A stretch of 26,095 nucleotides of DNA from a virus (taxonomy: Duplodnaviria > Heunggongvirae > Uroviricota > Caudoviricetes), in the IMG/VR virus record IMGVR_UViG_2531839476_000012, one strand, 5' to 3'. Each line of letters opens with the position of its first letter. Position 1 is the stretch's first letter. Both the position numbers and the translations under genes were made by a program. The notes beneath the pieces were generated by a model that saw nothing but the letters and a program-made list of their open reading frames with translations, did not search any database and was not told the DNA's origin. Below, piece by piece: positions 11,675 through 13,290 of the stretch.

Positions 11675-12082
11675 ATGCGTGATATTCAGATGGTTCTTGA
11701 ACGTTGGGGAGCGTGGGTGGCTAATAATCATGAAGATGTGACCTGGTCGTCCATTGCCGCCGGTTTTAAGGGATTAATTCCTTCAAAAGTAAAATCTCGC
11801 CCGCAATGTTGTGACGATGACGCGATGATTATTTGCGGGTGCATGGCCCGTCTGAAAAAGAACAACAGCGATTTGCACGATTTATTAGTAGATTATTATG
11901 TAGTCGGTATGACATTCATGTCACTGGCAGGTAAGCATTGCTGCTCTGATGGTTATATCGGGAAAAGGTTACAGAAGGCTGAGGGCATAATTGAAGGGAT
12001 GTTAATGGCATTAGATATCCGGTTAGAGATGGATATCGTTGTTAATAACTCTAAGGAAGGTGCGAACAAGTCCCTGATATGA
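11675..12082 (+). CDS. Q: Late-gene antiterminator Q (phage 82/DLP12 QuuD type); C-terminus altered by the IS5 insertion
   Basis: ATG 11675 with GGAGA Shine-Dalgarno; sequence recalled as Q82/QuuD-like; the last codons (KEGANKSLI) and the stop lie inside the IS5 left end. Confidence 0.7.
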
Positions 12083-13249
12083 GATCATGTTTGTCATCTG
12101 GAGCCATGGAACAGGGTTCATCATGAGTCATCAACTTACCTTCGCCGACAGTGAATTCAGCAGTAAGCGCCGTCAGACCAGAAAAGAGATTTTCTTGTCC
12201 CGCATGGAGCAGATTCTGCCATGGCAAAACATGGTGGAAGTCATCGAGCCGTTTTACCCCAAGGCTGGTAATGGCCGGCGACCTTATCCGCTGGAAACCA
12301 TGCTACGCATTCACTGCATGCAGCATTGGTACAACCTGAGCGATGGCGCGATGGAAGATGCTCTGTACGAAATCGCCTCCATGCGTCTGTTTGCCCGGTT
12401 ATCCCTGGATAGCGCCTTGCCGGACCGCACCACCATCATGAATTTCCGCCACCTGCTGGAGCAGCATCAACTGGCCCGCCAATTGTTCAAGACCATCAAT
12501 CGCTGGCTGGCCGAAGCAGGCGTCATGATGACTCAAGGCACCTTGGTCGATGCCACCATCATTGAGGCACCCAGCTCGACCAAGAACAAAGAGCAGCAAC
12601 GCGATCCGGAGATGCATCAGACCAAGAAAGGCAATCAGTGGCACTTTGGCATGAAGGCCCACATTGGTGTCGATGCCAAGAGTGGCCTGACCCACAGCCT
12701 AGTCACCACCGCGGCCAACGAGCATGACCTCAATCAGCTGGGTAATCTGCTGCATGGAGAGGAGCAATTTGTCTCAGCCGATGCCGGCTACCAAGGGGCG
12801 CCACAGCGCGAGGAGCTGGCCGAGGTGGATGTGGACTGGCTGATCGCCGAGCGCCCCGGCAAGGTAAGAACCTTGAAACAGCATCCACGCAAGAACAAAA
12901 CGGCCATCAACATCGAATACATGAAAGCCAGCATCCGGGCCAAGGTGGAGCACCCATTTCGCATCATCAAGCGACAGTTCGGCTTCGTGAAAGCCAGATA
13001 CAAGGGGTTGCTGAAAAACGATAACCAACTGGCGATGTTATTCACGCTGGCCAACCTGTTTCGGGCGGACCAAATGATACGTCAGTGGGAGAGATCTCAC
13101 TAAAAACTGGGGATAACGCCTTAAATGGCGAAGAAACGGTCTAAATAGGCTGATTCAAGGCATTTACGGGAGAAAAAATCGGCTCAAACATGAAGAAATG
13201 AAATGACTGAGTCAGCCGAGAAGTATTTCCCCGCTTATTCGCACCTTCC
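12055..13249 (+). mobile_element. IS5 insertion sequence (1195 bp) with 4-bp target-site duplication CTAA
   Basis: Terminal inverted repeats GGAAGGTGCGAACAAG (12055-12070) and CTTATTCGCACCTTCC (13234-13249); flanking CTAA at 12051-12054 and 13250-13253; internal transposase ORF. Confidence 0.93.
12087..13103 (+). CDS. insH: IS5 transposase (InsH)
   Basis: 338-aa ORF (alternative start 12123 giving 326 aa) inside the IS5 boundaries; sequence recalled as IS5 InsH. Confidence 0.9.
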
Positions 13250-13290
13250 CTAATTAATATGCCAATTGTTTACTGAAAGTTATTAAAAAT

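Follow-up and report, generated by a model that had tools for sequence, protein, structure and literature searches.

What does an insertion sequence (IS) change in a lambdoid prophage when it lands in the last codons of the gene for the late antiterminator Q? The question is raised by a 26,095-nt stretch of DNA from a virus of the class Caudoviricetes (IMG/VR record IMGVR_UViG_2531839476_000012), referred to here as the window, which is 100% identical to contig AKNI01000011.1 of the enteropathogenic Escherichia coli (EPEC) strain C342-62. In this window a copy of IS5 interrupts the 3' end of a quuD-like Q gene (11675-12082, plus strand), upstream of an opposite-strand porin gene and the phage lysis region. 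An original prediction, made from the sequence alone, held that the element separates Q from a probable adjacent late promoter and could change late-gene and porin expression. The insertion itself is real, and the locus as a whole can be read with good confidence as a simple insertion of IS5 into a CTAA of a Q21/Q933W-family gene in a lambdoid prophage of EPEC C342-62. The proposed regulatory consequences are mostly unsupported, since the predicted promoter is located elsewhere, the porin unit is undamaged and the change in Q is confined to its variable tail.

The element at 12055-13249 (plus strand) is a complete IS5 of 1195 bp whose transposase strand is that of Q. Its end-to-end alignment to IS5B of E. 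coli K-12 shows four mismatches and no gaps (99.67% identity), and the published size of IS5 is likewise 1195 bp with 16-bp terminal repeats (PMC11677980). The left terminal inverted repeat GGAAGGTGCGAACAAG (12055-12070, plus strand) and the right one (13234-13249, minus strand; reverse complement GGAAGGTGCGAATAAG) form an imperfect 16-bp pair with 15 of 16 positions identical. From left to right the junctions read GTTGTTAATAACT, CTAA (12051-12054), GGAAGGTGCGAACAAG, the body of IS5, CTTATTCGCACCTTCC, CTAA (13250-13253) and TTAATATGCC. The left CTAA occupies Q codons 126-127, and comparison with empty-site alleles, which have one CTAA, identifies it and the right CTAA as the two copies of the target-site duplication. 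This tetranucleotide conforms to the published IS5 target consensus C(A/T)A(G/A) (PMC11677980), and the native 120 bp around the insertion site have 36% GC, in agreement with the reported preference of IS5 for AT-rich targets. The transposase gene ins5A (12123-13103, plus strand) is intact and encodes 326 aa that differ from the K-12 protein by the sole substitution R274K, with Pfam matches to DDE_Tnp_1 (2e-35) and DUF772 (3.5e-21). The copy is thus a full-length and, apparently, transposition-competent element. The original prediction of an IS5 bounded by CTAA was therefore borne out by the alignment to IS5B, by the repeats and by the duplication on both sides, the latter two being the features on which it had staked its case. 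An Rfam scan of the whole window returned no families.

Deletion of IS5 and one CTAA in silico yields AAC TCT AAT TAA, a Q end of NNSN-stop. The corresponding empty-site sequence GTTGTTAATAACTCTAATTAATA, with a single CTAA and the translation ...VVNNSN-stop, is present in K-12 C600, MG1655 and LR-71-1, the same reading is found in DNA to the right of other IS copies (the flanks in STK39-3-E and MLI110), and phage ev099 also has an IS-free allele with the native NNSN-stop. The native end proposed earlier, ...NSN-stop, agrees with these K-12, LR-71-1 and ev099 alleles, and alignment with IS5-free homologues, which had been suggested as a check, gave the Q end as predicted. The statement that IS5 sits exactly at the Q stop codon needs correction: it is the last sense codon, AA|T (Asn127), that the element splits, and the displaced native end AAT TAA is now at 13252-13257. 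As had been foreseen, the Q frame reads into the left repeat. Codons from 12053 on are partly or wholly IS5 sequence, Asn127 is replaced by the nine IS-encoded residues KEGANKSLI, and a new stop, TGA, at 12080-12082 makes a protein of 135 instead of 127 aa.

This exact 135-aa protein, already annotated in GenBank (EIQ72497.1), was found in one NCBI contig and one Sequence Read Archive assembly and nowhere else among ~15 billion proteins, and exact junction scans gave no matches in the GTDB representative genomes or in IMG/VR. One 23-mer junction match in metagenomes (L021) is on a contig otherwise unlike the window and was taken as chance. Three apparent whole-query carriers were rejected as joined pieces: in 23CRST009 (H3) and SE11 (H18) an ISKpn26 lies on the far side of the porin gene, and in NH-21 (H5) it lies upstream of quuD.

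The 197-bp segment between IS5 and the porin gene (13250-13446) had been said to carry two terminator-like hairpins and probably the late promoter and the qut site. The two hairpins were recovered by the terminator scan and by folding; the promoter and qut assignment was not, the block homologous to the late promoter pR' being at 14914-14995. The first hairpin belongs to a predicted intrinsic terminator on the minus strand (13281-13308; stem 13291-13308, GGGGCGTTGCAACGCCCC, then AUUUUUAAUA). It folds with -13.9 kcal/mol, has its U-run on the minus strand only, lies 42 bp from the right end of IS5 and probably ends the porin transcript. The second, on the plus strand (13397-13437), was recognized from fold energy and an inverted repeat. 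It consists of a 15-bp stem with one bulge followed by CUUUUU, its hairpin (13397-13430) reaches -21.3 kcal/mol (z=-5.9), and it probably ends the Q, or early-right, transcript. Both hairpins are thus assigned as convergent terminators that close the Q and porin units, not as elements of a late leader. The porin gene itself (13447-14544, minus strand), an nmpC/lc-like moron, encodes 365 aa ending in ...VYQF, and Porin_1 of Pfam covers positions 1-337 of 337 (E=1.8e-156). IS5 leaves its open reading frame (ORF), minus-strand terminator and promoter region intact, all of them outside the element; because the element ends 42 bp beyond the porin terminator, the unit is untouched, and the suggested change in porin expression is not expected. 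Neither the porin gene nor the late promoter would be directly affected by IS5. A consensus promoter scan detected none in 13250-13446 or at the IS junctions.

Between the two terminators, at 13297-13327, inspection by eye suggests a weak promoter-like pair, TTGCAA-N19-TAATAT, on which the consensus scan was silent; TTGCAA is replaced by TTGAGA or TTGAAA in other strains. The pair points to the second hairpin and could yield a transcript of ~100 nt antisense to the 3' untranslated region of the porin message.

The predicted pR' lies on the plus strand at 14914-14941, between the porin and holin genes, with a -35 TTTACG (14914-14919), a 16-nt spacer and a -10 TATGCT (14936-14941); its predicted start site is near 14948. 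Over the 84 nt from the -35 to the T-run the homologous block (14914-14995) is ~80% identical to the block that directly follows Q in Shiga toxin 2 (Stx2) phages, and the alignment starts at the -35. In the Stx phage of strain Sakai the pR' start was mapped by differential RNA sequencing (dRNA-seq) and Term-seq, with a distance of 258 nt from pR' to the terminator tR' (PMC7547250). A start 6-7 nt after the -10, together with the T-run after GCCAGCCTCCCCCAGTGGCTGGC, reproduces this distance in Sakai, a check that concerns spacing only, as absolute coordinates differ by ~142 bp between record versions. Downstream of pR' in the window, a leader hairpin with T-runs (14966-15005, plus strand) is homologous to the first hairpin of the Stx-phage late leader and is a candidate site at which unmodified RNA polymerase would stop early; its stem is weakened here, and the fold of only -10.8 kcal/mol is not significant. 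The first late gene is an essD-like holin (15133-15348, plus strand), assigned by Pfam Phage_holin_2_1 and by homologue annotation. The predicted late promoter is therefore placed 1.66 kb to the right of IS5, beyond the porin gene. In IS-free prophages Q and pR' are ~1.66 kb apart, a distance that becomes ~2.86 kb with IS5, and the isolated phages ev099 and PhiR57_1, which have no IS, show the same order of Q, two hairpins, opposite-strand porin, pR' block and holin. An effect on the late genes through a promoter adjacent to Q, as initially proposed, does not fit this map, in which the pR' block lies past the porin gene and Q is natively 1.66 kb away. The literature describes the DLP12 lysis operon as under the control of a phage Q-type antiterminator (PMC7918800, citing Rueggeberg 2013). 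A search of open papers for an experimentally determined DLP12 late start site found none: the paper on sigma70 pausing has no mention of DLP12, and essD and quuD do not occur together in any open paper.

A 14-bp palindrome, TTTACGTACGTAAA (14914-14927), overlaps the -35 of the predicted pR'. The palindrome TTTACGNNCGTAAA occurs once in the window (0 expected by chance) and once per related locus, and its position is constant in these loci, upstream of the holin gene or after the Q gene of Stx phages. It could be the binding site of this Q subgroup or of another dimeric regulator. The perfect form TTTACG(NN)CGTAAA is kept between DLP12-type prophages and Stx phages despite diverged flanks, with further occurrences in loci L005 (7196-7209), L008 (4525-4538), L011 (2923-2936) and L012 (712-725).

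With the promoter map redrawn, the question becomes whether the altered Q can still act. The protein is 98% identical to QuuD of K-12 and matches the PF06530 profile over positions 1-118 of 118 (180 bits, E=1.3e-53), the domain ending at residue 118; PF06530 is the Q21/Q933W family (bioRxiv 10.1101/651190). In an AlphaFold2 model (predicted local distance difference test, pLDDT, 73.9) the top 11 matches in the PDB are all Q21 entries, such as 6P1B, with template-modelling (TM) scores of 0.45-0.61, and pLDDT falls below 50 at residues 124-135. Conservation among 43 homologues ends at RLEMD120. Beyond it, the tails of homologues 75-98% identical to this Q range from 1 to ~25 aa and are unrelated in sequence, for example D, AC, WYI, ADCSK, IVVNNSN and RYVQREVPCIGLKSLQA, as well as a tail of 24 aa in the Q of Stx phages. 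The length of the IS-made tail falls within this range, and all conserved Q residues are kept in the 135-aa form. Because the new tail lies in a region of variable sequence and length that is predicted to be disordered, the altered protein is rather likely to be functional, and the additional 1.2 kb should matter little, given that Q natively acts on a pR' ~1.7 kb away.

Several points weigh against this account, and they touch its assembly, its promoter and its protein. The C342-62 genome is a draft with many homopolymer errors, in which a multicopy IS of 1.2 kb could have been bridged wrongly: relative to the 99.8%-identical complete genome FDAARGOS_1059 it shows nine single-base indels in 5.1 kb, mostly in short homopolymer runs. 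The contiguity of the locus might then be an artefact by which two IS5 junctions from different C342-62 loci were joined through a collapsed IS5, and an independent short-read assembly of SRR060744 that ends 20 bp into IS5, as well as the complete genomes of MLI110 and MB06021, where the same junctions are 1.64 Mb apart, would be compatible with such a joining. It is nevertheless very improbable: the C342-62 flanks rejoin to an uninterrupted native sequence with a single CTAA, the 62.9-kb contig has a normal lambdoid gene order on either side of IS5, and comparison of the two flanks with MLI110 gives differences of 2.4% for the Q side and 9.4% for the porin side, which sets this prophage apart from the rearranged one. 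As for the promoter, the assignment of pR' rests on homology to Stx phages and on spacing, not on a start mapped in this type of phage. IS5 does sit between Q and 13250-13446, it adds 1.2 kb between Q and everything downstream, and the segment itself has two strong hairpins and the weak promoter-like pair readable by eye. That IS5 thereby separates Q from a late promoter, qut site and terminator within 13250-13446, with altered late-gene and porin expression through the separation or through promoter effects of the IS, is most improbable even so, in view of the homologue of the mapped Stx-phage pR' at 14914-14995, the silence of the consensus scan, a first hairpin that terminates on the minus strand only, and a porin ORF, terminator and promoter region that are intact at 0.04-1.3 kb from IS5; in isolated phages free of the IS, moreover, Q and pR' are already 1.66 kb apart.

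The protein offers a more direct objection. In the loading complex the last six residues of Q21 are ordered against the alpha/beta interface of RNA polymerase (bioRxiv 10.1101/651190), and a C-terminal extension could, by analogy, interfere. Q21 shares only ~19% identity with this Q, and no sequence alignment extends to its C-terminal half; a sequence search against the PDB aligned Q21 at residues 8-88 only, which leaves the C-terminal contact unmappable by sequence. The insertion might accordingly inactivate or weaken Q, either through eight extra residues that disturb the loading of Q onto RNA polymerase or through loss of the native 3' end of the mRNA, and leave the late genes off and the prophage locked in (domesticated). 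The repeated hits of IS5-family elements on the Q 3' end and the downstream spacer would suit this outcome, as would an ISKpn26 at Q codon 113 in STK39-3-E, which deletes conserved residues. It is unlikely all the same, since the tail after RLEMD spans 1 to ~25 residues in close homologues, including the Q933W-type Q by which Stx phages drive toxin expression (PMC3320398, PMC6266700), and since the altered tail is predicted to be disordered and every conserved residue is present. A distinctly unlikely variant would make the CTAA at the end of quuD-type Q genes a true hot spot for IS5-family elements instead of a chance repeat, with ins5A drawn into the delayed-early operon of the phage by insertions in the Q orientation and a burst of IS5 movement and IS-mediated rearrangements on SOS induction of the prophage, or else with insertions selected to damp Q and tame the prophage. 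It draws on a minimum of two independent insertions at the site (IS5 in forward orientation, an ISKpn26-like element in reverse), on four more IS5-family insertions within ~300 bp in other strains and on a 1.6-Mb inversion in two strains. The preferred reading thus remains a simple insertion with a Q that is probably functional.

The insertions in other strains can be described individually. The complete genomes of MLI110 and MB06021 share the left junction (80/80) and also the right one, which lie on opposite strands, in the arrangements Q(135 aa)-IS5-elaD' and elaD''-IS5-porin-essD. Each junction adjoins one half of elaD, which indicates that recombination between the IS5 in Q and an IS5 in elaD inverted ~1.6 Mb and split the DLP12-like prophage; in MLI110 the junction loci are at 1.487 Mb (L015) and 3.126 Mb (L017). 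The IS copies of MLI110 and the window are three single-nucleotide polymorphisms (SNPs) apart, and with the flank differences given above the two insertions are likely to be independent. At the same CTAA, the assembly SRR27904292 carries an ISKpn26-like element oriented the other way (L019, 4376-4561); this insertion makes a 162-aa Q fusion (P0016) and is clearly an independent event. In S171-1 and J6 an IS5 lies 38 bp after a 125-aa Q, and C600 has another IS5 besides IS5B, inserted in the quuD-nmpC spacer at the target TTAG, 95 bp beyond the stop of quuD (L001, 3515-4709); the two C600 copies are in inverted orientation, 161 bp apart. Judged from these junctions, IS5-family elements have made repeated use of the AT-rich site.

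In prophages with the 125-aa Q, which have lipocalin and YbgA genes downstream, the spacer shows a promoter-like TTGCTG-N17-TAA(C/T)(A/G)T, followed in order by a -10-like TAGAAT or TGGAAT and a terminator similar to the tR' of Stx phages (L003, 4452-4500 and 5680-5780; L004; L010, 2880-3010), and the IS5 of S171-1 and J6 is at a CTAA inside the putative -10 of this spacer. The late leader of Stx2 phages (L011, 3047-3057; L012, 836-846) contains a solitary 11-mer, GGAAGGTGCGA, equal to an IS5 terminus and followed by TAATTAATA, which is also present at the insertion site of the window. Either chance or an old IS5 event that left a trace could explain the 11-mer.

What the insertion may have created is a new connection between the phage and the element. 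The start of ins5A follows the new Q stop at a distance of 41 nt, with both genes on one strand, and the terminator scan detected no intrinsic terminator between them. In K-12, the nmpC copy is the chief origin of IS5 transposition because transcription from PnmpC reads through into ins5A (PMC11677980). By analogy, early-right phage transcription after induction would read into ins5A, and prophage induction would be expected to express it, as Q and ins5A are on one strand with no terminator in between. The IS5 copy would also supply portable homology for recombination.

The original prediction had named the same general arrangement for DLP12 of K-12, and the two loci do share the same element (four SNPs), a quuD-porin-essD module, the target CTAA and an IS between Q and most of the porin gene. 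They nevertheless represent different events, at different sites and in different orientations. In K-12, IS5B (574591-575785, minus strand) lies within the 3' end of nmpC; quuD, ~250 bp upstream, is intact at 127 aa, and the porin promoter drives ins5A (PMC11677980), whereas in the window Q-operon transcription would do so, the porin gene is intact and Q is altered. The Stx phages Sp5 and 933W resemble the window in a Q that is 76-80% identical over residues 1-120 and in a homologous promoter block (TTTACG-N16-TATCAT there, TATGCT here) with the palindrome at the -35 and the first leader hairpin. They differ in that pR' overlaps the 3' end of Q and the Q tail has 24 aa, while in the window a cassette of 1.66 kb (two terminators and the opposite-strand porin) as well as the 1.2-kb IS5 lie between Q and pR'. 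By eye, no Stx-type tR' (GCCAGCC...GGCTGGC-T6) was seen between pR' and the holin gene of the window. With Q of phage 21 (6P1B, 6P18, 6JNX) the protein shares PF06530 and the same predicted fold (TM ~0.6, probability 1.0), but Q21 has ~19% identity, 162 aa and a polymerase-contacting C-terminal segment for which the QuuD/Q933W subgroup has no conserved equivalent. Inversions between IS copies, as in the Q-elaD recombination of MLI110 and MB06021, have left no sign in the contig of the window.

The insertion is an ordinary event of an already known kind, and one strain-specific allele. It matters little by itself and has two minor uses. One is the corrected map, in which porin-carrying DLP12-type phages are predicted to have their late promoter after the porin cassette and not beside Q, so that insertions just 3' of Q are not to be taken as promoter disruptions. 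The other is that the locus provides a Q933W-like antiterminator with a naturally extended C-terminus, as well as a naturally occurring transcriptional fusion of Q to ins5A, which could serve to ask whether prophage induction drives the movement of IS5.

Among the neighbouring genes, the early-right region has a PerC-family ORF (PF06069) at 7975-8469, and genes for a Dam methylase, a LexA-DNA-binding-like protein, KilA-N and DUF968 proteins (Pfam) are also found upstream of Q. PerC-like prophage proteins regulate virulence loci of EPEC and enterohaemorrhagic E. coli (EHEC). On the other side of the locus, the nine indels are at 19610, 20966, 21463, 22512, 22738, 22860, 23095, 23182 and 23202 and split the ORFs of the large terminase (19089-19739 and 19736-21055), the portal protein (21212-21619 and 21616-22554) and an S49 protease. 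These split ORFs most likely reflect errors of a 454-type draft, not real pseudogenes.

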